Origin: an uncultured Verrucomicrobiota bacterium | GTDB taxonomy: Bacteria > Verrucomicrobiota > Kiritimatiellia > JAAZAB01 | Length of the DNA stretch: 26,329 bases | Direction of reading: 5' to 3' | Assembly (NCBI GenBank): GCA_964565485.1 | Contig: CAZMFH010000005.1 | Coordinates: forward strand, 1 to 26,329 | In this document: positions 1 through 12,756 of the stretch, piece after piece | Layout: each line of letters starts with the position of its first letter | Numbering within the stretch: position 1 is the stretch's first letter | The notes under the pieces: generated by a model | The model's database searches: none | The model's input: only the letters and a program-made list of their open reading frames with translations | Told to the model about the DNA's origin: nothing | Position numbers and translations under genes: made by a program

Positions 1-450
1 AATAAAGCCGGCGAGTTCCGCAGCCTTCTTTGTTACAGCAATCTGCGGCTGTTCAAAGGCGGCTGGGATTGTAATGACTGCGGCATCGATTTGTTCGCCG
101 CGCTTGCGTTCGACTGATGCTCTGAGTTCTTTCAGGATTTCGGCAGAGAGTTCTTCCGCCCGATATTTTCTGCCTGTATAGGGGAACAGGAATGTATCAT
201 CCGTTCCCATTCTGCGTTTAAACTCGATGTGAACGTTGTCCACGTCCTCCCACCGATGGGAGCTAAAATAGCGATAAGCAGTCTTGCCGACCTGACAATG
301 GCCTTTGTTGGAATAAGCAACGGCTGACGGTGTAATACGTTCATTGTAATTGTTCTCAATCACCATCGGCCGCGAACCCGGGTCAACACAGGCGATTTCA
401 CTATTTGTAGTGCCGAGGTCAATTCCGTAGTCTATTGTTTGTCTATTCAT
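1..450 (-). CDS. Hsp70/DnaK-family protein, non-canonical; N-terminal 150 aa only (continues past the left edge)
   Basis: Not in the ORF track. Manual translation from ATG 450 gives MNRQTIDYGIDLGTTNSEIA...ITPSAVAY...EFKRRMG...AAVITIPAAF...TKKAAELAGFI. This contains the Hsp70 phosphate-1 motif GIDLGTTNS plus the TPS, FKRxMG and AVITxPAxF motifs. AAAGGA RBS lies 9 nt upstream, and the frame is open to base 1. Confidence 0.93.
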   Translation of the reverse strand, partial: MNRQTIDYGIDLGTTNSEIACVDPGSRPMVIENNYNERITPSAVAYSNKGHCQVGKTAYRYFSSHRWEDVDNVHIEFKRRMGTDDTFLFPYTGRKYRAEELSAEILKELRASVERKRGEQIDAAVITIPAAFEQPQIAVTKKAAELAGFI

Positions 451-473
451 GGTCGGTATTCCTTTCTGTTTGG

Positions 474-980
474 CTAAATTGTTTTGGGTTGCGATGGCGG
501 CCCCTCGATAATGACGTCCCCCGCCTGCACAAACTTATCGTTGAAAAATATTGTTGGCTTTAGTGTTTCACAGATACGGTCGGACGCAAGAGACGCATTC
601 GGTTGCGACGATATGACATTCAGTGCCATTCCTTGGACAAAAGGCTGGCCGATATAGTCGACTATTTTCACGCCAAGTTTGTCAAGATTATCCAATGCAG
701 ACAGGATTGGACGCAAAACCTTCTTCATTTCGAGGGACACGGCACCTTCTTTTCCTGTACCAACAATGCGTTGTTTTGCTCGCCATAGATGCGTTGCCAA
801 CTCCGATAGGGTCCGCGTGTCGCATGAATCAATGGCACACCGGCAGCATTCCGTCATTTTCTGAGTGGACGTGGCAGTCATGAACCCCTGAACGATTTTA
901 TCAGCACCCTTGGGGAATTGTGTTTTTTGAAATGCCAACGGGTTCGGCCTCCGCAGTTCCATTCGCCTTCGTTTATTCAT
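474..980 (-). CDS. GrpE-like nucleotide exchange factor (divergent)
   Basis: The C-terminal half LDNLDKLGVKIVDYIGQPF...ICETLKPTIFFNDKFVQAGDVII follows the GrpE pattern (LxxxGVxxI..G..F; final beta strands ..ExxxxGYxxxxxxxRxAxVxV). It sits directly upstream of the Hsp70 and has an AAGGA RBS. Confidence 0.65.
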   Translation of the reverse strand: MNKRRRMELRRPNPLAFQKTQFPKGADKIVQGFMTATSTQKMTECCRCAIDSCDTRTLSELATHLWRAKQRIVGTGKEGAVSLEMKKVLRPILSALDNLDKLGVKIVDYIGQPFVQGMALNVISSQPNASLASDRICETLKPTIFFNDKFVQAGDVIIEGPPSQPKTI

Positions 981-995
981 AGAGTACTTCCTTTC

Positions 996-3149
996 TCATC
1001 GCATGGCATTGTAGCGAGCGACCTTTGCGTTCACGTCATCAATCAATTGTTTGTATTCATTATAGGTGGATTCCCTTTGTGCAGCCAAAGCGCGCAGCCG
1101 TTCAACATATGAGTTGTACGTAGGCACGAGGTCATTATAGGCAGAGACGTAGTCCGCTTTTTTGTAATTATCCATTTGTTGCCTATATGATTCCAGACTT
1201 CGTTCCTTTTCATCAATCTGCTTATCAAATGCTTTAATACGTGCTTCGAATTCTGTGGCTCGACGTTTTCCAAAATTAATTTCTTGAGCAAGCTTACTTT
1301 GAGGCGAGTGGTTAGGCGGCGTATAGGGTTGAGGCCGCTTGTATGATCCTACGCTATAAGGCAAGGGATAACTTGCTGCTGGCGAAATAGAACTCGAAGA
1401 AGATGAGCATGAATTGATGTTACCGATGACGATAAAAAACAAAACGATTCCGCACAATATCACCGATCCAATCAATTTAGCGCGCCTTTCCGAGCGAATA
1501 TGCTCGACACGTTGTTGGCACGTGCGGCGATCATTATCTATGGCCGCCAAGAAATCACCGTCCTTGCAAAGTTTGCCGGCTCTTTGAATGGCCTCCAAGG
1601 CAAGATCGTAATTTTTGCTCTCATTATACAGCGCAATGGAAATACTTCGAAGACAAACAGCACAAATATCAGCAACGATCTTATATGCTTCCGACGTGTG
1701 GCCGACTCTGTCTCCAATGTCGTTCAACCTTGGCAACACCATGCTAAGAAACTTTCGATAACGCTCCTCCGGAGTCGAGCGTGGACCGATAATTTGATCG
1801 CCTGCCACAAAACCGGTTTCTTGCATGATTGCATCACACAAGTTCTGAACTGGCTTAACCTCTCTCTCGGTGACCTGCCAGTGGGCATTAGCCTCAAGCG
1901 TTGCCAGATTCTTAGTAAAGCGATCTTTAAGCGCCTCGCTGTGCGCAATCGCCAGAAGTTCTCGATTTGGTTCGACCATTGATTCCCAGTCTTGAGTCTT
2001 TTCTCCGTATGCGATAAGACCAGTCATAGCTGCGTCTGCGACGGCATCATGTGCTGAGAAGCCGATACCGAGAACACCATTAGCATTCAAGACCGATAGG
2101 CATTTCAAAAGTGGTCGAGTGTTTTCCAGCAGTTTGATCGCCGCCGACAACCCGGTTTCGGGATTCTGCAGGACTTTTTTTTCCATGAGTTTACTGATCA
2201 AATGCACTTGATTCGCAACAGGAGTGGTGGCCTGCCGTAATGCGTTGTGACGATGTTTGTCGCTGAATTTGGAGACCTGAATCGTTTGGGCATGGCGTTC
2301 TGCGTGCAAATGCAGATCGTTGTTACAATAGACGATTGCCAGTTGCGCGTTGATCGACAAGAGTGATTCAGGTAGTTGTTCCCTGATAACTTCGATTTTG
2401 TCCGGGGTTATTGTCTCATCGAGCTCGGCTGCTCGGTTGGCCAACTCCGCCCAGAAGTCCATATTGATCCAGAGTTGGGACCAACATGAATCCGCGGATT
2501 TCCATAACGCCGAGAGTTCTAGTTCTTTTTCTGGTAGCGGCGGTGGCCGCTTGGGAATGCGAAGTTTTTTTTTGCAGTTTGGACAATCAACAATGTTGCC
2601 AAACATATCTGGCGTGGCCTCAAGATGTTGTTGGCAATGAGGACAGTAGAACTTGGTAGAGCGTTGAGGTCTGTATGAATTTTCCGCTTCCAATGCTGTA
2701 AGATGATAGAAAACTGCCAAATTATGCAATGAGACGGCGTTTCTACGTTCTGATTCTATGGCAGCAAGCCATGTGGTCCTGGCTGTTTCCTTGTCGCCAG
2801 AATGTAATGCCTGAAGAGCAATGTCCGGTTGATGAGCATTCTGGGGCCAGAACCAGAACAACTCCTCGACTATGCGGCGGTATGGATGGCTGAGTTTATG
2901 GTCAACAGCGTGTTTAATGTCCTCATCATCGGGCGGTGTTGCTAATGGAAATATTGACGATTGCAGGGAAGGCGGGATAATGCCAATTCGACGACACTGT
3001 TCGCGTTCTTTGGAAAATTTGATTGCTTCTTTTTGGGATATGGTAACATCAAGTCCGGTTACCCGGAAAGCATTGTATGCGTAGAGATCGGGGTTGCATA
3101 CATCTTTAAGGAACTGCATTTCGTTTTGCTCTGCTCTATGCCCTATCAT
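996..3149 (-). CDS. Multidomain membrane protein: N-terminal J-domain-like region without HPD, TPR-like helical repeats with a zinc-ribbon insertion, one TM helix, Ser/Pro linker, C-terminal coiled coil
   Basis: 717-aa ORF with GAGG RBS. NAFRVTGL...ISQKEAIK and DIKHAVDHKLSHPYRR resemble J helices I/II and III. It has a CPHC-x17-CPNC motif, a hydrophobic stretch LIGSVILCGIVLFFIVIG, and a heptad-rich tail. Confidence 0.65.
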   Translation of the reverse strand: MIGHRAEQNEMQFLKDVCNPDLYAYNAFRVTGLDVTISQKEAIKFSKEREQCRRIGIIPPSLQSSIFPLATPPDDEDIKHAVDHKLSHPYRRIVEELFWFWPQNAHQPDIALQALHSGDKETARTTWLAAIESERRNAVSLHNLAVFYHLTALEAENSYRPQRSTKFYCPHCQQHLEATPDMFGNIVDCPNCKKKLRIPKRPPPLPEKELELSALWKSADSCWSQLWINMDFWAELANRAAELDETITPDKIEVIREQLPESLLSINAQLAIVYCNNDLHLHAERHAQTIQVSKFSDKHRHNALRQATTPVANQVHLISKLMEKKVLQNPETGLSAAIKLLENTRPLLKCLSVLNANGVLGIGFSAHDAVADAAMTGLIAYGEKTQDWESMVEPNRELLAIAHSEALKDRFTKNLATLEANAHWQVTEREVKPVQNLCDAIMQETGFVAGDQIIGPRSTPEERYRKFLSMVLPRLNDIGDRVGHTSEAYKIVADICAVCLRSISIALYNESKNYDLALEAIQRAGKLCKDGDFLAAIDNDRRTCQQRVEHIRSERRAKLIGSVILCGIVLFFIVIGNINSCSSSSSSISPAASYPLPYSVGSYKRPQPYTPPNHSPQSKLAQEINFGKRRATEFEARIKAFDKQIDEKERSLESYRQQMDNYKKADYVSAYNDLVPTYNSYVERLRALAAQRESTYNEYKQLIDDVNAKVARYNAMR

Positions 3150-3170
3150 GAAAAACCTCTGATGCCTTTT

Positions 3171-4265
3171 TTACATGACAACGCCCTTGCGCCAGAGTTG
3201 AATCTGGTACTCGTAACGCAATCGCATAGCCGGAGCAGCATTAACGGCCTCTTCGAGAATATCGGCCGCCTCGATGAGTTTTCCGGCGTCTATTGCCAGG
3301 TGAAAAGCCTTTGCGATCATCTTTTCCGCATTGTTCACGTCGGGAGCTGTGCGTTGGCCTAACGCAATTTTGGACACAGTGACTGAAGATGGCAGTTTTT
3401 TCTCGCCAGTCGGTTCCTTCTTCTTCCACGCCGTTAGGTCTGCAAGCATTGCGCCTGCGTTCTGGTAACGGTCTTTTGGGTTCAAGGTGAGTGCCTTTAG
3501 AATGATCGAGTCAAGAGATGGATCCACATCTATGTTCAGGCGGCTTGGCGGCGTGATTGGCCGCTTCCACCGATTCCCGATGGCAAACTCGCTTGCATCC
3601 AATTCTGGAAATGGGAGTTGGTCGGTTAGCAAAAGATACATTGTCGTGCCAACGGCCCACATGTCGGTGGCCGTGGAATCCTTCTTCTCCAGAAACTCGG
3701 GTGCCTTGAAGGCAAGTGTGCCTTGGGCGCTGGCAATGAGGGTCATGGGATTAACGCGTTTGGCTAGGCCGAAATCCGATATGCGAACTCGTATGCCAGC
3801 GCCGTCATAACCCACGAGAATATTCTGAGGCTTAATATCGCGATGGATTATGGCAGGCCGTTCAGAGTGTGCAACCATCAATCCTTGACAAACTTGTTTA
3901 ATGATATCGACCGTTTGTTCAATTGGAATAAAACGACCGGCAAATGAGCGCCAATAACGATCTAGTGTTCCCCCAGCGACATATTCCATTGTGAAGAAAC
4001 CAGAGGGACCGGCATTCGTCTCAAAGACATCGGCATTGAACACTCGGACAATGTTGGGATGACCAATGCGCGATAGCATTATGGCCTCGCCGAGCGTTTC
4101 TTCCGTCTCTTTAGCTGTGAGGCCGACGCGTTTGAACACCTTCATGGCCTGACGGCCGAGAAAGCGATGGCGGACACGGTATACTTCGGCGAAAGCGCCT
4201 TCGCCTAAGAATCTTTCAATCTCATATGCCTCTTGTATTGTCTGTCCTTCGTTCAAAAGTCTCAT
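3171..4265 (-). CDS. Hanks-type Ser/Thr protein kinase with a short C-terminal TPR-like helical region
   Basis: All core motifs are intact: LGEGAFAEV, AMK, HRDIKPQN, DFG, GTLAFKAPE, DMWAVG. Start moved from 4520 to ATG 4265 (MRLLNEG), which has an AAGGA RBS and places the kinase domain at the N-terminus; 364 aa. Confidence 0.95.
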   Translation of the reverse strand: MRLLNEGQTIQEAYEIERFLGEGAFAEVYRVRHRFLGRQAMKVFKRVGLTAKETEETLGEAIMLSRIGHPNIVRVFNADVFETNAGPSGFFTMEYVAGGTLDRYWRSFAGRFIPIEQTVDIIKQVCQGLMVAHSERPAIIHRDIKPQNILVGYDGAGIRVRISDFGLAKRVNPMTLIASAQGTLAFKAPEFLEKKDSTATDMWAVGTTMYLLLTDQLPFPELDASEFAIGNRWKRPITPPSRLNIDVDPSLDSIILKALTLNPKDRYQNAGAMLADLTAWKKKEPTGEKKLPSSVTVSKIALGQRTAPDVNNAEKMIAKAFHLAIDAGKLIEAADILEEAVNAAPAMRLRYEYQIQLWRKGVVM

Positions 4266-4273
4266 GATGAAAA

Positions 4274-4480
4274 TTAATCCTTGCCATGTTGTCTCTGCCA
4301 GTTCTGCGCGCGATCGAGGCGCCAATGCTCCAAGGTCTCGTGATGCAATCGGCGCGGACGTGAAACTGTAGGATTGAATGAGACGGAGTTGGTCGCCTTG
4401 CCCAATTTGGCCGCTATGGTGGCTTCGGATCCTATATCGCATCCCGCCGAAAAACGAAAAGGCGCGGACTCCAAGCTCAT
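4274..4480 (-). CDS. Possible small ORF (68 aa) with an HTH-like segment, upstream of the kinase
   Basis: ATG 4480 is preceded by GGGAG, and the stop ends 8 nt before the kinase ATG. SEATIAAKLGKATNSV...SRPRRLHHETLE loosely resembles a sigma region-4 HTH. Weak. Confidence 0.3.
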   Translation of the reverse strand: MSLESAPFRFSAGCDIGSEATIAAKLGKATNSVSFNPTVSRPRRLHHETLEHWRLDRAQNWQRQHGKD

Positions 4481-4693
4481 GCCTCTCCCAGTGACCAGCA
4501 AGCCCCATCCAGAAACACAAAGCAAGAAGCCGCGCCCCTTTATCGGAGCGCGTTCCTCACAGTGTCGCCTCTGGATACAAAAATTGCTGGTTTTGGGAGA
4601 GCCGATTACTGCGCGTTAACGCAAAATTATTTTATCAGATATTTGAGTTTGTCACCTCATTGTTATTGGCCAGCATCACGCTGACTGATCAAA

Positions 4694-4722
4694 ATTATAG
4701 AGCTTTCCCCGCGGACAGACAA
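4694..4722 (-). promoter_or_regulatory. Sigma70-type promoter for the kinase-Hsp70 operon
   Basis: On the minus strand TTGTCT-N17-TATAAT (-35 at 4722-4717, -10 at 4699-4694), in the AT-rich gap between the integrase and the kinase. Confidence 0.6.
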
Positions 4723-4832
4723 TCAGAATAATTCAGTGTTTTTGAGCAAGGGCGCAAGTCAGTATATCCCACATGAGTTTTGTCTTGTGGCTTCGGCGCC
4801 AGTTTTGTTCTGCGCCCTTATCGTTTGTTTTT

Positions 4833-6479
4833 TCACGATGCTTTGTCCTTCAGGATCGCCAGCGCCCGCGCTTTGTCCCTATTGCACGTCTTCGGGGTCA
4901 TGCCTTCGATAATCTCGCGTAACTTTTCATCTCTGCTTTTGGCGCCGCTCATCAGCATCCGGGGCATGGCCTTCTCAAACTCGCGGCGAAAATCTTCGCG
5001 CCCTGGTTTGAAATAATGCTTGCGCACAATATCAACCGCCGTATGGCCGGTTACGCGCCTGACCAACTCTTCCGGCATGCCGGCAGAAAGCGCCCGTGTA
5101 ACAAAACTTGTGCGGAAGGAATGCCAGCCAAGGATGCTGCTACGATTCAAGCGTTGTACCGTGCCATCCTTCGCATGGATGGAGCCCCTGATCATGGAAG
5201 GCATAAATTGCGGGGCCGGGCGGCGTAGAACCGACGCGCCGATCAGGTTTTCAATCTCGTGTAGGTGCAAAGAAACAGTGCCCTTGCTTACGCCAAGCTC
5301 GCGGGCAATTGTCGGCAGCCCCTTTCCGTCCATGTAGGCCATAAAAATAGTTTTCATTCGCTCCCGTTTGGCATCGCTCATTCTGCCGGCGACAATTGCT
5401 TTCAGTCCCCGGCGCCGGAGTTCGTCCGGCGGCAATTCCGGCAACGCTGGTCTTTGGTCTGGCTTTTCCTGCTCCCTGGCCTTGAACCGTTCGGCCATCG
5501 CCGCGTCTACGAAGCCCGCCCGGGCCAGGATCATACGTAAATGCCGGTTAAGTCCGTATGGGTCTGCCTGATAAAGTTCCGCTGCTTTCGGGAAGACATA
5601 CTCACTTTCCGTTTTCGGCATGCGGCTCAACTCATCGCGTAACATTGGCAGGATAGGGATCTCCGCCGTTTCGCCGGTCTTGCTCGTGCGGACCTCGATA
5701 AAGCCTGCATTCATGTCCACGCTTGACCATTTCAGCAGGGCACAGTCTCCACGCCGCATGGCCGTACAGACGGCGGTTACAATCGGACCGCGCATAATTT
5801 CATCATCCTGCGCTGCCGCCAGAATGGCTTTGATTTCGTCATCTTGAAAAGGTTTCCGGTGAATAGTGTCTTCGTCTTTCTCGCTCACGTCCTTTAGGAA
5901 ATTCCGGTAAGCATCGGCGTTTGGTTCCAGCCGCCGGAAGATGGTCTTTAGCAGTTTCAAGGTGATGTTCCATGTTCGGGGCGCAATGCCGCGCTTGGCC
6001 TCATCATCCAGGAAGCCCCGGACATGCTCTGACCGGACAGCGGCAAGATCTTCTGTTGAGGGATAGCGCTGACGCATATAGTCGGCAAAGCAGACCAGTT
6101 TGTTCTTGGTTGTCTCGGTGTACTGCGGAGATGGTGTCCGCTTGCGTGGGAACGTGTTCCATGCTTCAGGGAGCGCCGCCACCTTGATGAAGTCCAGTCT
6201 GGTTCCCGTCTTTGCCTCGATTATCCGTTGCGAGAGCTCCTCGACGTGTTTCTTCGATAACTCTTGCTTAAGCAATTCGTCATGTTTATCCTTTGCTGCG
6301 CCATAGGACCGCTGAAAGGCTGCGTTCTGCCAGTTGGCAACGTCAGTCAGGCTCGGCGGGCGCTTGCCCTCGATCTTAAGATCGAGGTTAACCCGCCGTA
6401 ACTTGCCGTTGATCATGAATCGAGCATACCACCAGCGGGACGTTTTTTTATTTCCAACGCCATGAGTTAATTCTCCCAA
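4833..6479 (-). CDS. int: Tyrosine recombinase/integrase of the tRNA-Gly island, with an HTH-containing insertion; start uncertain (TTG 6479, or ATG 6463 via frameshift)
   Basis: Catalytic residues are present: R (TAMRRGD), K (TSKTG), HxxR (HSFR), H (GHT), Y (HYF). N-terminal arm-binding-like beta region WWYARFMINGK. Adjacent to the tRNA 3' end. Confidence 0.93.
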   Translation of the reverse strand: MGELTHGVGNKKTSRWWYARFMINGKLRRVNLDLKIEGKRPPSLTDVANWQNAAFQRSYGAAKDKHDELLKQELSKKHVEELSQRIIEAKTGTRLDFIKVAALPEAWNTFPRKRTPSPQYTETTKNKLVCFADYMRQRYPSTEDLAAVRSEHVRGFLDDEAKRGIAPRTWNITLKLLKTIFRRLEPNADAYRNFLKDVSEKDEDTIHRKPFQDDEIKAILAAAQDDEIMRGPIVTAVCTAMRRGDCALLKWSSVDMNAGFIEVRTSKTGETAEIPILPMLRDELSRMPKTESEYVFPKAAELYQADPYGLNRHLRMILARAGFVDAAMAERFKAREQEKPDQRPALPELPPDELRRRGLKAIVAGRMSDAKRERMKTIFMAYMDGKGLPTIARELGVSKGTVSLHLHEIENLIGASVLRRPAPQFMPSMIRGSIHAKDGTVQRLNRSSILGWHSFRTSFVTRALSAGMPEELVRRVTGHTAVDIVRKHYFKPGREDFRREFEKAMPRMLMSGAKSRDEKLREIIEGMTPKTCNRDKARALAILKDKAS

Positions 6480-6576
6480 GGGGTTAAAAAGGGGAACATT
6501 CCTCTTAAGCTATGTCGGAAGTTATCGGACAATACGGGGCAAGAGTCAAGAAGTAAATTTCCCCTTTTTGAACCCT
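6479..6576. repeat. 18-bp imperfect inverted repeat pair between int and the tRNA (candidate arm-type or regulatory sites)
   Basis: AGGGGTTAAAAAGGGGAA (6479-6496) versus the reverse complement of 6559-6576, AGGGTTCAAAAAGGGGAA; 16/18 identical. Confidence 0.65.
6521..6549 (-). promoter_or_regulatory. Candidate integrase promoter
   Basis: TTGACT-N17-GATAAC on the minus strand, located between the two inverted repeats. Confidence 0.45.
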
Positions 6577-6613
6577 AAAAGGGGCAAGCAGCAAGATTGC
6601 CGGCTACAGAAAT

Positions 6614-6636
6614 CAGCAAATAGCGCGTATTTACTG
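6614..6636 (-). terminator. Possible hairpin terminator downstream of tRNA-Gly
   Basis: On the minus strand CAGUAAAUA-CGCGC-UAUUUGCUG (9-bp stem with one G-U pair), followed by AUUUCU. AT-rich, weak. Confidence 0.3.
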
Positions 6637-6645
6637 GGTTTTTTG

Positions 6646-6719
6646 TGGAGCGGGCGAAGGGAATCGAACCCTCACAACCAGCTTGGAAGGCTGGGGCTCT
6701 ACCATTGAGCTACACCCGC
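6646..6719 (-). tRNA. tRNA-Gly (anticodon TCC)
   Basis: GCGGGTGTAGCTCAATGGTAGAGCCCCAGCCTTCCAAGCTGGTTGTGAGGGTTCGATTCCCTTCGCCCGCTCCA. Cloverleaf with anticodon arm CCAGC-CTTCCAA-GCTGG, GTTCGA T-loop and encoded CCA. Confidence 0.97.
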
Positions 6720-6933: not shown

Positions 6934-6987
6934 TTGACATTTCGTCTGTGCGTGTTACCATATTACGTTTTTACGAAAACGTAACAC
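6934..6987 (+). promoter_or_regulatory. nikR operon promoter with overlapping candidate NikR operator
   Basis: TTGACA (6934-6939)-N16-TACCAT (6956-6961) with an extended -10 TG. GTGTTAC (6952-6958) and GTAACAC (6981-6987) are inverted, and there is an inner 9-bp palindrome TTACGTTTT-N4-AAAACGTAA (6963-6984). Confidence 0.6.
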
Positions 6988-6989
6988 CA

Positions 6990-7409
6990 ATGAAAAAACA
7001 AAAACAGACACTTTGCAGGTTCAGCGTTTCCATGGCGGCGGATTTGCTGAAGCAGTTTGATTTGATGATCAAGAGCCGCGGCATGCGCAATCGCTCACAG
7101 GCGCTGGCGGAAGTGGCGCGCGCGCAATTGGTTGAACATTATGCGCAACTGGGCAATCATCAGATTGCCGGCACGGTTACCATGGTGTATGATCACCATC
7201 AGCGCAATATTCAGCCGCTGTTGACGGAGATTCAGCATGCGCACGGCGCTTTGATTATTGCCGCATTGCACGTTCATCTTGACCACCATAACTGCATGGA
7301 AGTGCTTGCTGTGCGCGGCCAGGCGGCGGCAATTCAAAAAATGACTGATGCGCTTTTGGCGGTTAAAGGCGTTCAACACGGCAAATTAACAGTCACAACA
7401 ACCGGATAA
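6990..7409 (+). CDS. nikR: Nickel-responsive transcriptional regulator NikR
   Basis: Ribbon-helix-helix N-terminus (RFSVSM...NRSQA) and Ni-site motifs YDHH, QH and HVHLDHHNCMEV. Start set at ATG 6990 (139 aa). Confidence 0.95.
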   Translation: MKKQKQTLCRFSVSMAADLLKQFDLMIKSRGMRNRSQALAEVARAQLVEHYAQLGNHQIAGTVTMVYDHHQRNIQPLLTEIQHAHGALIIAALHVHLDHHNCMEVLAVRGQAAAIQKMTDALLAVKGVQHGKLTVTTTG

Positions 7410-7423
7410 AGGGGAAAGGCGCA

Positions 7424-9346
7424 ATGTTCAATAAGTTTTTACGGCGGATGGTTTTGGGCCTGGTTTTGTTTGGGGCATGGGTGGCGGATGCGGAAGAGCC
7501 GGACACGAATGCGCCTTTTGCTTTTGTGGCTGAAGAAATAGTGGTAACCGCCACGCGCATGGCCAGAAAAGTCAAGGATGTAACTTCGGCTGTCAGCGTG
7601 ATTGATGAAAAGGAAATAGAATCCGCCAATGCGGATTATGTAATGGATGTTATCGGCAGTTGTCCGGGCGTTTATATTCGGCGTGATGCGATTTATGGTC
7701 GGCAGGATATTGAAATTCGCGCGCTGGGTTCCAATGCGCGAAGGATTTTGACGCTTGTGGACGGGCGTCCGGAAAAGATGTCCCTTTTCGGCTGCACGGT
7801 TACCCAGACTTTACCGCTTTCCAATGTCGAGCGGATTGAGGTTGTGCGCGGACCGGAATCGGCGCTTTACGGTTCGGATGCGATGGGCGGAGTTGTCAAT
7901 ATCATCACCAAACGCGTTACCGACCCCGGCTTTCAATCCGGCGGTTTGTTTTCCTTCGGCAGTTACAACACTTTGCACGCTTTGGCGCGACATGGCGGCA
8001 ATATTCATGGCTTTGATTACTATGCCACTTATGATCACAAGCAGACAGACGGGTATCGTCCGAATTCGAGCTATGACGCCGATTTTCTTTCACTGCGCAC
8101 CGGCTATCAGCTTGACGAGATCTGGCGTCTTGAACTTGCGGGCCAGCATTTCCATGATTACGGCAAGGATCCGGGTCCGGTTACCAATCCATATACGCAT
8201 GACGACCGGCGGAAATACAGGCGTTATTCCTGGGATGCCGATCTGATCGGCAAGTGGGATGATGACGCCGAATTCGGTTTGACCTTCTATGAAAATGCCG
8301 GCGAGCATGATTTTACCATGCCGTCCATTGCCGATTACTGGCATTCCAAGGATCGCACAATGGGGTTGCAGACGAAATATGCCCGCAAGCTGTTTGAAAC
8401 CGATTGTTTGCGGGAAGTGCTGACGGCAGGGTATGATTATCAGCATCAATGGGCTGCGCCGCAGGAGGATTGGATCGCCTGGGCGCGCGCCAATATGCCG
8501 GCCAGATTCATGGATTTTGGCGATTACACACGCAATAACCATGCTCTTTTTGTCTTTAACGAATTGACTTACGGTTGTTGGGTCAATACGCTCGGCTTGC
8601 GCGGGCATTGGGACGACACGGCGGAAAAATGGGAGGCCATTCCGTCTGCCGGCTTGCTTTGCCATGTTACGGATTCGACCACCGCGCGCGCCAAGGCGGC
8701 CAAGGGTTTTCGGCAGCCTGCGTTCAGCGAATTGCATTTGTTTCCGGCGCATAACGAAGAGCTTCGTCCGGAGAAGGTTTGGAGTTATGAGCTGGGTTTG
8801 AACCAGCAGTTTGCGCAGTGCTTGAGCGCCTTTGTTAATCCGTTCTATATGGATGTCGGCAATCTGATTCAGCAGGAAGCCAATGCGGCGCCGCCGCCAA
8901 ATTTTATTAATCGCAATTCCGGGCAATTTCATATCCGCGGTTTGGAGACGGGTGTGGAGATCAGGCCGTCGGACAAGCTGGAGTTTGGGCTTGTTTATAC
9001 CCTCACGGATGTCGAGGATGGTCCGGAGCATAATCCGCATCTGAACCGTGAAGGCAAGCCGGAGCATATTTTTAATGCGGTGGCTCAATGGCGTATCGGC
9101 AAGTTGACGCTGACCTGTGATGCCGAATATGTCTTGGGTTTGTATGATAGTGATTTGCTGGCCGGAGGCGCCATTCAAAAAGTTTCTGATTTCTTTGTCG
9201 CCAACATCAAAGGTTCTTATGCGTTGCAGCAATATCTCGATCTGTTCATGGGGGTGGATAATATCTTTGATCGGGATTATGAGCAAATCCCAGGTTATCC
9301 CATGCCGGGAGTAACGGTCTTTGCCGGCCTTAAGGCGCAAATTTAA
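7424..9346 (+). CDS. TonB-dependent outer-membrane receptor
   Basis: Signal peptide, TonB-box-like EEIVVTATR, plug motif VERIEVVRGPESALYGSDAMGGVVNIITK, and C-terminal GVDNIFDRDY...PG. Confidence 0.93.
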   Translation: MFNKFLRRMVLGLVLFGAWVADAEEPDTNAPFAFVAEEIVVTATRMARKVKDVTSAVSVIDEKEIESANADYVMDVIGSCPGVYIRRDAIYGRQDIEIRALGSNARRILTLVDGRPEKMSLFGCTVTQTLPLSNVERIEVVRGPESALYGSDAMGGVVNIITKRVTDPGFQSGGLFSFGSYNTLHALARHGGNIHGFDYYATYDHKQTDGYRPNSSYDADFLSLRTGYQLDEIWRLELAGQHFHDYGKDPGPVTNPYTHDDRRKYRRYSWDADLIGKWDDDAEFGLTFYENAGEHDFTMPSIADYWHSKDRTMGLQTKYARKLFETDCLREVLTAGYDYQHQWAAPQEDWIAWARANMPARFMDFGDYTRNNHALFVFNELTYGCWVNTLGLRGHWDDTAEKWEAIPSAGLLCHVTDSTTARAKAAKGFRQPAFSELHLFPAHNEELRPEKVWSYELGLNQQFAQCLSAFVNPFYMDVGNLIQQEANAAPPPNFINRNSGQFHIRGLETGVEIRPSDKLEFGLVYTLTDVEDGPEHNPHLNREGKPEHIFNAVAQWRIGKLTLTCDAEYVLGLYDSDLLAGGAIQKVSDFFVANIKGSYALQQYLDLFMGVDNIFDRDYEQIPGYPMPGVTVFAGLKAQI

Positions 9347-9377
9347 ATTTGCAATGGTTCGTTGCGACTGGTTTATC

Positions 9378-10247
9378 ATGGCGCAGAAAGGCAAATATTT
9401 TGCGAGGTTTGGCGCGCTGGTTATTTTTGCCGCCATGTCTTGGCGCCTTTGCGCCCCAATTGGCGCAGAACCTGCCGCGCAGGCGCAGGCGTTGGCCGGC
9501 CTGCCGCCTTTGCGGATCGTATGCACAACCACATTGATTGCTTCAATTGCCGAGGCCTTGGGCGGCACGAATATTGTCGTGCGGACGATTATTCCGTATG
9601 GTATGTGTCCGGGGCATTTCGATTTGACTCCCGGTGAGGTCAATCAGATCAAGCAAGCCGATTTGCTGTTTTATCACGGGTTTGAACGCTTCCTGCGCAA
9701 CCTGGCTCCGCCCAAAGGCGCGAAGCTTGTGCGGATTGGAGTGGCCGGAAACTGGATGATTCCGCGTTTGCACAAAGAGGCGGTTTCTGAATTGATGGAA
9801 GTTTTGGCGCGGCAGCGTCCGGATTTGTCCGCTTGCTTGGCGGATCGTGGCGCGGCATATCTGGATGCAATCACCCGTGCCGATCAATTTTGGCGGGCGC
9901 AAATGCATGTTTGCGCCGGTGTGCCGGTTGTTTGTTCGCAAATCAATCGCGATTTTGTGGAATGGATGGGATTGGTTGTGGCGGCTGATTTTAGGCGTGA
10001 CGAGGAAATGTCGCTTAAAAGCATGCATGCCGCGCTTGCGGCGGGACGGACGCAATCCGCCAGGCTGGTTTTGGACAACACGCAGAGCAGCGGCAAAGTC
10101 GGGCAGACCTTGGCGGAGGCGTTGCAGATTCCGCTGGTGATGCTCAGTAATTTTCCCGTGCCGGATCGGCGGAATGACGCTCAATTTTATTATCTGGCGG
10201 CCTTGTCGAATAATTGCCAAGCGGTCATACGGGCTTTAACGCCATAA
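9378..10247 (+). CDS. Metal ABC transporter substrate-binding protein (ZnuA/TroA-like, atypical ligands)
   Basis: IVCTTTLIASIAEALGG, PYGMCPGHFDLTP and ADLLFYHGFE patterns. Start set at ATG 9378 after the receptor stop. Confidence 0.85.
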   Translation: MAQKGKYFARFGALVIFAAMSWRLCAPIGAEPAAQAQALAGLPPLRIVCTTTLIASIAEALGGTNIVVRTIIPYGMCPGHFDLTPGEVNQIKQADLLFYHGFERFLRNLAPPKGAKLVRIGVAGNWMIPRLHKEAVSELMEVLARQRPDLSACLADRGAAYLDAITRADQFWRAQMHVCAGVPVVCSQINRDFVEWMGLVVAADFRRDEEMSLKSMHAALAAGRTQSARLVLDNTQSSGKVGQTLAEALQIPLVMLSNFPVPDRRNDAQFYYLAALSNNCQAVIRALTP

Positions 10248-10251
10248 GCGG

Positions 10252-11040
10252 GTGATCATGCAGCCGTTTTTATCAATTGAACATTTGCGTGTGGCGCGCC
10301 GCCACAAAATTGTTTTGGATGATTTTTCGCTGGCATTAAACAAGGGCGATGCCGTGGCGGTTCTTGGCGCGAACGGCGTTGGGAAGACAACGCTTTTGCG
10401 GTGCATTATGGGGTTCATTGCGCCCGCTGCCGGGGAGATCAGGTTTGCCGGCGCGCATGTCGGTAATTTCCGGCAGTTGCGCAAGCGCATTGGCTATGTG
10501 CCGCAGAATCCGGCCATTGATTTCAAAATGCCATTGAGCGCGCGCGAAGTGGTTGCCATGGGGCGGTTGAGCATTGCCGGCATCGGGCGGCGGCTTGATG
10601 CGGAGGATTATCTGGCAGTTGACGAGGCGTTGCAGGAGACCGGGATGGCTGCTCTGGCGCAGCGTCCGATTGGCCATCTCTCCGGCGGCGAGATGCAGAA
10701 AGTTCAGCTTGCGCGGGCCTTGTGTCGGAGGCCGGAGTTGTTATTGCTTGACGAACCGACCGGCAATTTGGATCTGGGCGCACAGCAGGAATGCCTCGCA
10801 TTGATCGGACGCATGCATGTCCGGCATGGCTTGACGACCATGATTGTGATGCATGATTTAAAATCCATTGCTTGCCGATGCGAACGCGCCGTTATCATTG
10901 ATGATGCGCGCAAAGTGTTTGACGGCGTCATGAGCGATGTTTTTGTCGAATCAAATCTGAAGCACCTCTATAAGCGTCAGGCGCCGTCCGTCCTTCAGGC
11001 GCTGCTTGCGGATTTGGCGCGGAGCGGGAGCCGGGTATGA
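10252..11040 (+). CDS. Metal ABC transporter ATP-binding protein (ZnuC-like)
   Basis: Walker A GANGVGKTT, Q-loop GYVPQ, signature LSGGE, Walker B LLLLDEP, switch HD. Confidence 0.93.
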   Translation: MIMQPFLSIEHLRVARRHKIVLDDFSLALNKGDAVAVLGANGVGKTTLLRCIMGFIAPAAGEIRFAGAHVGNFRQLRKRIGYVPQNPAIDFKMPLSAREVVAMGRLSIAGIGRRLDAEDYLAVDEALQETGMAALAQRPIGHLSGGEMQKVQLARALCRRPELLLLDEPTGNLDLGAQQECLALIGRMHVRHGLTTMIVMHDLKSIACRCERAVIIDDARKVFDGVMSDVFVESNLKHLYKRQAPSVLQALLADLARSGSRV

Positions 11041-11843
11041 TGGAATTCTGGCAACACGAGTTTTTTCGGAATGCCCTGTTGGCCTGCCTGTTGGGAGGAA
11101 GCGGCTTGGCGCTGATTGGGGTTTGCTTGACCTTGCTGGATTTGCCTTTCCTTGGCATCAGCATGTCGCATGCCGCTTTTCTTGGCGGAGTGGTCGGCTT
11201 GTTGTGCGGCTTTAACCCGCTGCTCGGCGCTTTGGGCGCTTGTACGCTGGCCGGGTTGCTGATCGGGCCGCTGGCCGACAAAACGGGCGCATCCTCCAAT
11301 GTGATTTTGGCGGTTTTATTTTCGGCGGTGATGGGGGCGGCGTTTCTTTTGTTGGCCAGGATTCCTGGGCCAAAGAGCGAGGCCTTGAACCTGATTTGGG
11401 GCAGTATTTTAACCATTTCGCGCGCGGAACTGGTTGTGCTGGGGTTGATCTATGCGCTGGCGCTGGGCTTGTTGGTTGTGTTTTTTAAGGAAATTGCGGC
11501 GATATGCCTGAGTCGTGAGATCGCGGCAGCTTGCGGGGTGCCGGAAAAATTTTTTTATTATGGCTTGCTTGTCATGGCTGGATTATTGATTGGCGCCAGT
11601 TTGGATATTGTCGGCGGGCTGCTGGTTTTTGCTTTGCTGGTCAATCCGTCCGGCGCGGCCTATCAGCTTACCTATCGTCTCAAGACGATGTTTGTTCTGG
11701 CGACTGTCTTTGGGGTTGCGTCCTGTCTGTCCGGTTTGTTATGTTCTTATTGGTTTGATGTTCCATCCGGAGCTGTTATTGTGCTGTGTTCTTCCGGTAT
11801 TTATCTGCTGGCCTTTCTTGTTTCGCCCAAACGTCGCATGTAG
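11037..11843 (+). CDS. Metal ABC transporter permease (ABC-3/ZnuB-like)
   Basis: Polytopic membrane protein with SMSHAAFLGG, LIWGSIL and VGGLLVFALLVNP motifs; overlaps the ATPase stop by 4 nt. Confidence 0.9.
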   Translation: MMEFWQHEFFRNALLACLLGGSGLALIGVCLTLLDLPFLGISMSHAAFLGGVVGLLCGFNPLLGALGACTLAGLLIGPLADKTGASSNVILAVLFSAVMGAAFLLLARIPGPKSEALNLIWGSILTISRAELVVLGLIYALALGLLVVFFKEIAAICLSREIAAACGVPEKFFYYGLLVMAGLLIGASLDIVGGLLVFALLVNPSGAAYQLTYRLKTMFVLATVFGVASCLSGLLCSYWFDVPSGAVIVLCSSGIYLLAFLVSPKRRM

Positions 11844-11859
11844 GGGAAAGGAGCGGGTT

Positions 11860-12756
11860 ATGTTTTGGACAAGTTTTCTTGAGTCGCTCCGGCATTACAG
11901 CACGGAAATTATCCCGGCTTTGGTGGTTGGTTTCCTTTTGAGCGGCTTGCTGCATGAATTTCTGCCTGACCGGTGGGTGCGCGCCAATCTGAGCGGACGC
12001 GCCCTCAAAGGCATTTTGTATGCCACCTTGATCGGCACGTTGGTGCCCGTCTGTTGCTGGGGATGCTTGCCTTTGGCCATCAGCATGCGCAAAAAAGGCG
12101 CTTCGTTAGGGCCGATTCTGGCGCTTTTGGTGGCGACGCCGGCTACTTCCATTAATGCCTTGATTGTTACGGGCAGTTTATTGGGAATAAAATTTGCCGC
12201 CTACCTCTTTGGGGCGGTTGTCGCCATGGGGGTTGGCATCGGCTTGGTTGGAAACAGGTTGACAGCTCGTCCGTTGGCGCAAAATACGGAAAGTTGCGCT
12301 TGTCATGATCGTCCTGTGGATGATGACAGAAAAGATGGCCGGCCCTTTGGACTTCGAATCCGGGCGGCTTTGAAATTTGCCGCCGTGGATATGCCGAAGA
12401 CCATTGGCAAGGAACTGCTGTTGGGTCTGGTGCTGGCGGCGCTGGTCAATTCGGTGCTGCCCATCGGGATATTTGTGCGCAGTTATTTGATCGGGTTGCG
12501 CGGTTATGTTTTTGCCGTGGTGCTCGGTTTGCTGATGTACATGTGTGCCACGATGAGTGTGCCTTTGGTTGATGCCTTGATCCGACAAGGCATGGATGTC
12601 GGCGCCGGTTTTGTTCTGCTCCTGATCGGGCCGATTACAAGTTATGCGACGATCCTGGTGATTTGGAAGGAATTCGGCTGGAAAGTTCTGGCGGTTTTTC
12701 TGTCATTTATTTGTTTGCTGGCTGTCCTGCTGGGCTATCTTTACACCTTGATTTAG
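11860..12756 (+). CDS. Predicted permease, DUF318/ArsP-like
   Basis: Two repeats with PVCCWGCLP and YMCATMSVP motifs, plus ATPATS and LLIGPIT. True start ATG 11860 after an AAGGAG RBS, not 11590. Confidence 0.85.
   Translation: MFWTSFLESLRHYSTEIIPALVVGFLLSGLLHEFLPDRWVRANLSGRALKGILYATLIGTLVPVCCWGCLPLAISMRKKGASLGPILALLVATPATSINALIVTGSLLGIKFAAYLFGAVVAMGVGIGLVGNRLTARPLAQNTESCACHDRPVDDDRKDGRPFGLRIRAALKFAAVDMPKTIGKELLLGLVLAALVNSVLPIGIFVRSYLIGLRGYVFAVVLGLLMYMCATMSVPLVDALIRQGMDVGAGFVLLLIGPITSYATILVIWKEFGWKVLAVFLSFICLLAVLLGYLYTLI

Follow-up and report, generated by a model that had tools for sequence, protein, structure and literature searches.

The DNA analyzed here, called the window, is a 26,329-nt stretch of contig CAZMFH010000005.1 from an uncultured Verrucomicrobiota bacterium, and its left edge (1-4265) carries four genes of an atypical Hsp70 module. 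All four lie on the minus strand. Read in that direction they encode a Hanks-type Ser/Thr kinase of 364 aa (3171-4265; an open reading frame (ORF) with a Pkinase match), a J-like adaptor of 717 aa predicted to be membrane-anchored (996-3149; an ORF outside all Pfam, NCBIfam and PADLOC families), a GrpE-fold protein of 168 aa (474-980; an ORF assigned by AlphaFold2 (AF2) modeling and Foldseek), and the first 150 codons of an atypical Hsp70 (1-450), which is cut at window base 1. Spacers of exactly 21, 15 and 23 nt separate the genes, as reported in a preliminary description of this DNA that had read the genes as a mobile operon of a kinase and an alternative Hsp70 triad. The left flank, which that description had proposed to retrieve, was recovered from metagenome contig L001, and it supplied the complete 836-aa Hsp70 (L001 6227-8737) and further genes. 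L001 equals window 1-6676 at 99.9 % identity (7 mismatches in 6676 nt) and begins inside a tRNA-Gly, at tRNA position 44.

The module is the first cargo of an island. The first island gene encodes a tyrosine recombinase/integrase of 548 aa (4833-6479, minus strand), which gives weak NCBIfam matches to XerC and integron-integrase models and whose identical copy in L001 matches PF00589. Next to it lies the tRNA-Gly with anticodon TCC (6646-6719, minus strand; ARAGORN, Rfam tRNA 71.4 bits), the integration target at the island border. GC content is 0.46-0.52 over 1-4500 and mostly 0.52-0.59 elsewhere in the window, the core part of which has two GC dips of its own. An integrase beside the 3' end of the tRNA and a deviating composition mark this region as a tRNA-integrated island, which bears out the earlier view of the four genes as AT-rich cargo next to the integrase. 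A direct repeat of the tRNA-Gly 3' end was not found in the window and L001 sequence, and the far border of the island lies beyond both.

Conservation of the module

One genome per GTDB species was scanned with a profile of the Hsp70 C-terminus, which yielded 53 loci (numbered with L here). Their ORFs were called and searched with hidden Markov models (HMMs) built from the family alignments; the 46 loci with more than 2.6 kb of upstream sequence were informative. By annotation the 53 loci come from Acidobacteria, Verrucomicrobia/Opitutia, Gemmataceae, Lentisphaerae, Bacteroidia, Ca. Magnetominusculus, Anaeromyxobacteraceae, Chloroflexi and many Actinobacteria, the last including Frankia, Parafrankia, Nocardia, Actinomadura, Nonomuraea and Microlunatus.

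In all 46 informative loci the GrpE-like gene ends within about 150 nt of the Hsp70 start. It was found in 48 of the 49 loci with more than 0.7 kb upstream, the sole exception being an Opitutaceae metagenome-assembled genome (MAG) on a 6-kb contig, where none was detected ahead of the Hsp70 gene (L040 1-1116). The J-like gene is equally constant (46/46), lying upstream of the Hsp70 in 42 loci and downstream in 4. One further locus, from a Chloroflexia MAG, is pseudogenized, with kinase, GrpE-like protein and Hsp70 in fragments (L056 4675-11319). The conserved core therefore consists of the J-like protein, the GrpE-like protein and the Hsp70, all near-universal, whereas the kinase occurs in only 15 of the 46 loci. 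Of the four-gene unit that had been proposed, the three-gene core is thus conserved; the kinase is not a constant part, and two further genes described below also belong. That the genes act together is, in our judgment, very likely.

The Hsp70 and its GrpE-fold partner

PF00012 matches the Hsp70 fragment in the window at 3.8e-26 and the full protein at 3.6e-68. The family profile aligns to the DnaK nucleotide-binding domain (NBD) at 6.7e-84, in line with the first reading as an Hsp70; the β part of the substrate-binding domain (SBD) aligns weakly but in the right order, after an insert of about 120 aa, and the helical tail is much longer than the DnaK lid. Among 52 family members the DLGTTNS and DxGGGTFD motifs and the equivalents of Lys70 and Glu171 are invariant. 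The protein nevertheless scores far below the cut-offs of the DnaK models (TIGR02350, 233 bits against 822.55; NF001413, 232.5 against 648), where only the NBD aligns, and the same is true of the HscA model (218 against 708) and the YegD-type model PRK11678 (45 against 331). A canonical DnaK has about 640 aa, made up of NBD, conserved linker, SBD-β and lid. NCBIfam holds no specific model for any protein of the module, and the numerous relatives of about 830 aa are labeled only as 'Hsp70 family protein' or 'molecular chaperone DnaK'. Two variants of about 1250 aa with two HSP70 Pfam stretches were also seen (P0229, at L065 10001-13741, and P0230); in L065 the partner of the variant is a J-like protein of 1166 aa with HEAT repeats.

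Neither the sequence of the 168-aa protein nor its family profile matches anything in Pfam, NCBIfam, PADLOC or the PDB. Its AF2 model, with a mean predicted local distance difference test (pLDDT) score of 78.6, consists of two helices followed by a β domain. Every one of the 12 top-ranked PDB structures in Foldseek is a GrpE or GrpEL1 (E 1.3e-5 to 1e-2, probability 1.00, TM-score 0.35-0.55), and the next match has E 0.46. The GrpE-like reading made from the letters alone thus holds at the level of the fold. An exhaustive HMMER search returned 1372 cluster representatives, 749 of them at E ≤ 1e-10, and the family is therefore a large one overlooked by sequence models; a scan of GTDB genomes with a close GrpE-like alignment returned no loci. 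Taking the predicted fold together with the gene order, we consider it likely that this protein is the private nucleotide-exchange factor of the Hsp70. That it accelerates ADP release is presumed from the invariant adjacency to the Hsp70 gene.

The J-like adaptor

The 717-aa protein belongs to no family in Pfam, NCBIfam or PADLOC, and phmmer and profile searches of the PDB were equally fruitless. A word-indexed search found 46 relatives, none of them named. The conserved portion is the N-terminal stretch of about 460 aa, which in the family alignment starts with P.LY..NAFRV.GL.V.A..RE..RR…LPL..PPD…A.QRL.DP.RRLVDELFWFWP and contains, after the J-like region, the invariant motifs ELFWFWP and HNLAV. 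The J-domain-like region covers aa ~20-100 (2850-3092, minus strand; hhalign and AF2) and has no HPD motif, the His-Pro-Asp that J domains carry between helices II and III. In hhalign, residues 22-95 align onto J positions 5-70 of eight J domains with a probability of 89.7 % and a score of 38.4; none of 100 column shuffles scored above 18.8, and the reversed alignment reached 11.4. The eight template sequences were verified as PF00226. A listing, for the J-like family, of the Pfam families with the best scores or the widest spread among members (E ≤ 5) does not contain DnaJ. The AF2 model of residues 5-160 has a pLDDT of 91.4, and Foldseek places J domains at E 1.4-10 with TM-scores of 0.45-0.51, 13 of the top 50 viral-library matches being J proteins, none of which is significant. 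Because the HPD is missing and the structure search gives no significant J fold, we speak of a degenerate J-like domain and not of a J domain.

Beyond this region the protein is more variable. A CxxC...CxxC zinc ribbon is inserted at aa 163-198 (2556-2663, minus strand; weak Zn-ribbon Pfam matches); it occurs in 2 of 22 aligned members, is lineage-specific, and is followed by a helical region. A Kyte-Doolittle scan predicts a single transmembrane (TM) helix at aa ~555-577 (1419-1487, minus strand), and hydrophobic segments lie at the matching place in several aligned homologues. The N-terminus is predicted to be cytoplasmic, since the positive charges of RSERRAK precede the helix. An extracytoplasmic Ser/Pro linker and a coiled coil of about 100 aa with repeated YN motifs would follow (999-1322, minus strand; read from the sequence); they are kept in a subset of the homologues and give only weak coiled-coil-type matches. 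At the C-terminus other members have HEAT or Sel1 repeats instead, and one has a DnaJ_C client-binding domain (4.6e-13). Such exchangeable C-terminal modules follow the architectural logic of class C J proteins and thereby support a co-chaperone or adaptor role. On balance the protein is probably the targeting partner of the Hsp70, although with less assurance than attaches to the exchange factor. Of the earlier designation as a J-like membrane protein, the predicted anchor and a likeness to J domains at the profile level stand, while no member has an HPD and the structure search falls short of significance. Two loci encode two J-like paralogues each (L003 8160-13072 and L018 1835-8181); those of L003 are in tandem, and its second paralogue bears a DnaJ C-terminal client-binding domain.

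The kinase

The kinase matches Pfam Pkinase at 2.9e-45, and its GxGxF motif, AMK lysine, αC glutamate, HRD..N, DFG and APE show little or no variation among 17 orthologues, in keeping with its first identification as a Ser/Thr kinase. It is cytosolic with a short helical C-terminal tail, and the TM scan found no membrane segment. Its orthologous subfamily is sharply delimited, with HMM scores above 380 when other kinases reach at most 104. A member is encoded upstream and in the same orientation in the 15 loci mentioned above, directly beside the J-like gene in most of them; these are annotated as Lentisphaerae, Ca. Magnetominusculus, Acidobacteria, Anaeromyxobacteraceae, Bacteroidia, Frankia/Parafrankia and Chloroflexi. 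All close relatives (50-76 % Hsp70 identity) having upstream flank sequence possess it, and it co-occurs with the long form of the fifth gene, described in the next section. The kinase defines a subtype of the module and is accessory to the conserved core. A second kinase of about 550-610 aa is encoded on the minus strand, 3-4 kb upstream of the Hsp70, in L021, L023, L033, L051, L052, L045, L049 and L053; this divergently transcribed gene is found in Frankia, Parafrankia and Nocardia loci, including Nocardia without the orthologous kinase.

Genes downstream of the Hsp70

The module exceeds four genes. In L001 the Hsp70 is followed by a 59-aa ORF (8709-8888), a 455-aa Clp_N-AAA protein (8893-10260) and, directly after the module, the type I restriction-modification (R-M) gene hsdM (10482-11054). 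In 20 loci the gene directly 3' of the Hsp70 encodes a protein of about 300 aa, here called TPR-TM-OmpA, in which a cytosolic TPR part, a single membrane helix and a peptidoglycan-binding domain of the OmpA/MotB/TssL type are combined; 17 verrucomicrobial loci have a shorter TPR protein in its place. By homology to this protein the 59-aa ORF is an N-terminal remnant, aligning only to its first 35 residues (43 % identity, E 6e-4). L066, a 71 % identical relative and the closest one on a sufficiently long contig, retains the OmpA gene followed by Clp_N-AAA, which indicates that the fifth gene was lost in the lineage of the window.

The second additional gene, a variable sixth member of the module, joins a Clp_N-like domain of about 140 aa to variable outputs and is present in at least eight loci. 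In the window's lineage, L061 (13140-14423), L064 (7199-8572) and L066 (6464-7840) the output is a single AAA+ domain; in L004 (15764-16903) it is an adenylate/guanylate cyclase, and in L010 (12354-14888) and L054 (12034-15180) a cyclase together with a ClpB-like double AAA+. The protein in L001 starts with a Clp_N-like part, has one AAA+ domain of the ClpA/ClpB type, stops at the D1 lid and has no apparent M-domain. Both the TPR-TM-OmpA gene and the Clp_N-fused output gene belong to the module. Further genes were seen nearby in two relatives. Directly after the TPR gene of the kinase-type module in L068 lies a gene for an FHA-domain protein (8353-8667), which fits phospho-threonine signaling; further FHA proteins were seen in two distant flanks. 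A true J-domain protein of 171 aa (PF00226) is encoded 4 kb downstream of the module in L066, on the opposite strand (9695-10210, minus strand), and could be a genuine HPD partner or a coincidence.

Leader region and chromosomal neighbors

The last three genes of the operon have Shine-Dalgarno-like purine motifs (AGAGG, AAAGGAAG and GAAAGGAA) 7-9 nt ahead of their starts. A ribosome-binding site had been claimed for every gene, but at the kinase the AAGGA is rather distant, about 15 nt upstream. The claim of a single near-consensus promoter lacks statistical support: a site of the form TTGTCT-17-TATAAT exists at 4722-4694 (minus strand), but promoter-like sites are at chance level in this region (6 found, 5.0 +/- 2.2 expected from shuffles) and a terminator-like hairpin (4552-4531) lies between the site and the kinase start, 430 nt downstream of it. 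The upstream region (4266-4722, minus strand) thus comprises the promoter-like site and a 429-nt structured leader (4266-4694) with a minimum free energy of -157.7 kcal/mol (z = -3.47; 0 of 100 shuffles equally stable). The leader matched no Rfam family and shows no similarity to the sequences that precede related kinases; it could act as a regulatory leader particular to this lineage or be a piece of the island att region.

To the right of the tRNA the window is ordinary core, with NikR, a TonB-dependent receptor, a ZnuABC-type transporter, UbiA and an aconitase-family protein. Part of it is a metal-uptake cluster (6948-12756) of NikR, the TonB-dependent receptor, a ZnuA-like binding protein, an ABC ATPase, an ABC-3 permease and an ArsP-type permease, with a strong T-over-A skew at 11-12.5 kb.

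Defense genes around the closest relatives

Eight loci of the closest clade, with at least 50 % Hsp70 identity, were examined, namely the window's island (via L001) and seven relatives. Restriction, abortive-infection or toxin-antitoxin genes lie within 10 kb of the module in 6 of the 8. The window's island has the type I R-M gene hsdM, besides the integrase; L059 has PIN and other toxin-antitoxin pairs and DUF499, L060 an AIPR-Z1-DUF4420-HATPase cluster, L061 McrBC, a YprA-like helicase with MZB, SNF2 and WYL, L062 Mrr, and L064 McrBC, HNH and GmrSD. L066 and L068 are short contigs with nothing obvious. In PADLOC-DB v2 the full Hsp70 and the GrpE-like protein had no hits, and the J-like protein and the 150-aa Hsp70 fragment had chance-level ones only.

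Comparison with known systems

Bacterial Hsp70 machines have been described as being of three kinds, DnaK, HscA and HscC, of which the specialized HscA and HscC dispense with an exchange factor (2021 review, PMC8215388). In its working the module is closest to the specialized systems, with HscC-DjlB/DjlC nearest and DnaK-DnaJ-GrpE-ClpB as the parent scheme; membership fails for all of them. Like E. coli HscC with its membrane-anchored DjlB/DjlC, it has a non-housekeeping Hsp70 encoded with its own co-chaperones and a single-helix inner-membrane anchor on the adaptor, and a narrow client range is probable (PMC8215388). HscC, however, has 550-580 aa, no nucleotide-exchange factor and partners with true HPD J domains (PMC8215388), whereas the module combines an 836-aa Hsp70 containing an insert of about 120 aa and a long helical tail with a private GrpE-fold protein, an HPD-less adaptor and a kinase. 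With the DnaK-DnaJ-GrpE and ClpB system it shares an Hsp70 of intact ATPase motifs, GrpE-fold and J-related partners and a Clp_N AAA+ protein nearby. It differs in falling below the equivalog cut-offs, in lacking an HPD, an Arg167 equivalent and any apparent M-domain, in a Clp-like protein with a single AAA+ domain (cyclase-fused in relatives), and in being island-borne and kinase-linked. A housekeeping dnaK operon was rejected because of scores, architecture and location, the genes being sited between the integrase/tRNA and a type I R-M system, and the preliminary description was right to set the module apart from dnaK-dnaJ-grpE.

Two described conflict systems contain Hsp70 homologues. The GTPase-centric GAP1-N2 systems combine Hsp70, GrpE and DnaJ/TPR-FNIII proteins (Kaur, Burroughs, Iyer, Aravind 2020, PMC7159879). 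They resemble the module as predicted conflict systems with a private Hsp70, a GrpE and a DnaJ/TPR-fused protein near the membrane or cell wall, but their hallmarks are GAP1, paired (one or two) ZnR-GTPases and FNIII-repeat proteins, and a separate kinase theme is never combined with their Hsp70 theme (PMC7159879). Membership was rejected, as GAP1, GTPase and FNIII are absent from the Pfam annotations of the window, L001 and the close relatives. The Hsp70-like CnuD of type III CoCoNuT has degenerate Walker motifs and predicted RNA binding (Bell et al. 2024, PMC11090510). It shares with the module an Hsp70-like NBD/SBD, helical or HEAT-like extensions and a setting in defense loci, two module relatives (L061, L064) adjoining McrBC. 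CnuD is accompanied by the coiled-coil McrB/McrC homologues CnuB and CnuC, with an NxD McrB GTPase and an McrC N-domain, and has no GrpE or J partner (PMC11090510), whereas in the module the ATPase motifs are invariant and GrpE-fold and J-like partners are always there. Membership in CoCoNuT was likewise rejected, since the window's island has no McrBC and the ATPase motifs of its Hsp70 are not degenerate.

The kinase resembles PD-T4-6, Staphylococcus Stk2, BREX PglW and MADS MAD6 in being an active-type Hanks kinase in a defense-island setting; it differs in that it constitutes a separate orthologous group, linked to the Hsp70 module. The mitochondrial import motor unites mtHsp70, the membrane-anchored Pam18, the HPD-less J-like Pam16 and the GrpE homologue Mge1. 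There, too, an Hsp70 is tethered at an inner membrane by a J and an HPD-less J-like protein and recycled by a GrpE-family factor; no counterpart of the translocon or of Tim44 was identified for the module, and the analogy is one of parts only. No account of this architecture was found in Pfam, NCBIfam, PADLOC or the openly searchable literature, subscription literature being outside this scope, and the initial statement that no characterized system has such a composition agrees with the absence of any published or curated description there.

A probable membrane-anchored chaperone switch and its alternatives

The view we prefer, with confidence that is evenly balanced, is that the four genes are the window's part of an accessory, island-borne and self-contained Hsp70 machine, a widespread and undescribed module whose likeliest use is in conflict or stress defense; this use is suggested because the module is mobile cargo kept among restriction and abortive-infection genes. 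The machine is probably a membrane-anchored chaperone switch with a kinase output, and possibly defensive. The adaptor would tether the Hsp70 at the inner membrane and present or release a client. Because the HPD and its arginine partner are both gone, we propose that its coupling to the ATPase uses an interface unlike the canonical one, or else that it serves as a scaffold only. The GrpE-like protein would reset the Hsp70 through ADP release, and ATP-driven binding and release of the client would constitute the switch. The client would most plausibly be the co-encoded kinase or the Clp_N-fused protein, so that a disturbance of the envelope or proteome might be converted into Ser/Thr phosphorylation or, in relatives, into cyclic nucleotide synthesis (cyclase) or unfolding (AAA+ unfoldase). 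The data themselves establish what the genes encode, the conservation of active sites and of gene order, the genomic settings and a predicted membrane anchor. All contacts between the proteins, the nature of client and trigger and the role in the cell are what we infer, as are the phosphorylation control, the sensing and the anti-phage action suggested in the preliminary description. That the role is anti-phage defense is possible and, on our assessment, on the unlikely side.

A bolder version would add the module to DnaK, HscA and HscC as a fourth, hitherto unrecognized kind of bacterial Hsp70 machine, acting as an envelope-anchored immune switch in which chaperone titration serves as the infection sensor. 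The J-like adaptor and the TPR-TM-OmpA anchor would report a disturbance of envelope or proteome caused by phage, the cycle of Hsp70 and GrpE-like protein would free or remodel a client and so license the kinase (in relatives the cyclase or the Clp-like unfoldase), and the licensed output would arrest the cell or dismantle phage proteins. We consider this version distinctly unlikely.

A number of results weigh against the preferred reading. DnaK Arg167 contacts the HPD of the J domain. The HPD is found in none of the 22 aligned J-like members, where the site reads 'lG..', and the Arg167 equivalent is never an arginine in the 52 Hsp70 family members, being proline in 36 of them. With both missing, canonical stimulation by a J protein is unlikely, and the genes do not form a canonical triad. 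Foldseek returned no hit below E 1 for the J-like model in the PDB or BFVD, and gene linkage and a distant profile match are what suggest the adaptor role. The kinase, absent from 31 of the 46 species-level loci, is inessential to the core machine. The window's copy is without the TPR-TM-OmpA protein kept by most kinase-type relatives, and it may work differently or not at all. Finally, the defense context does not extend far. In Ca. Magnetominusculus the module stands beside TamB/BamA, loci of Opitutia and other Verrucomicrobia have conserved neighbors in common, and the neighborhoods of the distant clades are stable and of non-defense type. At 13 distant kinase-type loci, with 113 flanking ORFs, no defense family recurred in a scan that covers the 25 commonest families, so that lone defense genes may be overlooked. 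Relatives of the module were found neither in IMG/VR (pattern scans) nor among the phages of INPHARED or the plasmids of PLSDB, and an origin on a phage or plasmid therefore finds no support. The proposal that the module is defense-island cargo thus applies to the close relatives and not to the distant clades.

A role in envelope or proteostasis stress is the main rival to an anti-phage role. It would assign the same dedicated Hsp70 machine to quality control of the envelope or of membrane proteins, or to stress tolerance, in the manner of HscC, with the defense neighbors incidental to transfer. The predicted membrane anchor of the adaptor, the conserved peptidoglycan-binding TPR-TM-OmpA partner, the stable inheritance with conserved neighbors in Opitutia/Verrucomicrobia and the TamB/BamA neighbors all fit such a role, as do the distant kinase-type loci without recurrent defense genes and the Clp_N/ClpB-like partners, which recall the pairing of DnaK with the disaggregase ClpB. 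We nonetheless regard it as unlikely, because defense-type genes surround most loci of the closest clade, the C-terminal modules of adaptor and Clp_N protein vary in a way usual in conflict systems, and kinase, FHA and cyclase components favor signaling over bulk proteostasis. The kinase might also be an independent single-gene defense kinase of the PD-T4-6 or Stk2 type that stands uncoupled beside an Hsp70 triad. Its PADLOC matches are strong (PD-T4-6 7.4e-54, mad6 4.7e-61) and most core loci do without it; these matches, however, cover the generic kinase domain only, and the NCBIfam scores for MAD6 (148, cut-off 460) and PglW (90, cut-off 990) are far too low. Moreover, the distinct subfamily is always upstream and in the same orientation in seven differently annotated lineages, with a gap of 21 nt here, and keeps company with the long TPR-TM-OmpA gene, so that we think an uncoupled kinase very unlikely.

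To much the same small degree we credit the idea that the window's copy is a decaying remnant that no longer works as a system. The fifth gene has been cut to the 59-aa ORF where L066 keeps OmpA and then Clp_N-AAA, and the L056 lineage is openly pseudogenized. Against decay, neither the four ORFs of the window nor the Clp_N-AAA gene is disrupted, and their catalytic motifs are conserved; independent samples carry the locus at 99.9 % identity, and some relatives (L061, L064) are likewise without the OmpA part or have it truncated. An ordinary dnaK-dnaJ-grpE operon, or an already described GAP1-N2 or CoCoNuT CnuD system, seems to us extremely improbable. The NBD is DnaK-like, modules of Hsp70, GrpE and DnaJ/TPR proteins are known from GTPase systems (PMC7159879), and the McrBC genes adjoining L061 and L064 recall CoCoNuT. 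The low DnaK and HscA scores, the length of 836 aa with its insert, the absence of an HPD J protein and the island site speak against the ordinary operon, the lack of GTPase, GAP1 and FNIII genes in the window, L001 and close relatives against GAP1-N2, and the invariant ATPase motifs, in contrast to the degenerate Walker motifs of CnuD, against CoCoNuT, McrBC not being adjacent in the window's island.

Implications for Hsp70 biology

Private Hsp70 systems as such are known; what is new is a private Hsp70 system of undescribed composition. The family contradicts the picture of three Hsp70 types, as it is a large and phylogenetically wide class with its own GrpE-fold factor that sequence models have missed. 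A J-like scaffold without HPD and an Hsp70 without the matching arginine imply a different coupling of co-chaperone to ATPase. Cultured carriers in Nocardia, Frankia, Actinomadura, Nonomuraea, Microlunatus and Opitutaceae EW11 make these questions testable. The links to kinase, FHA, cyclase, Clp_N-AAA and cell-wall anchors suggest an Hsp70 that serves as a signaling switch and not as a folding helper, and if the defense association of the kinase clade reflects function, a chaperone-based mechanism would be added to bacterial immunity.

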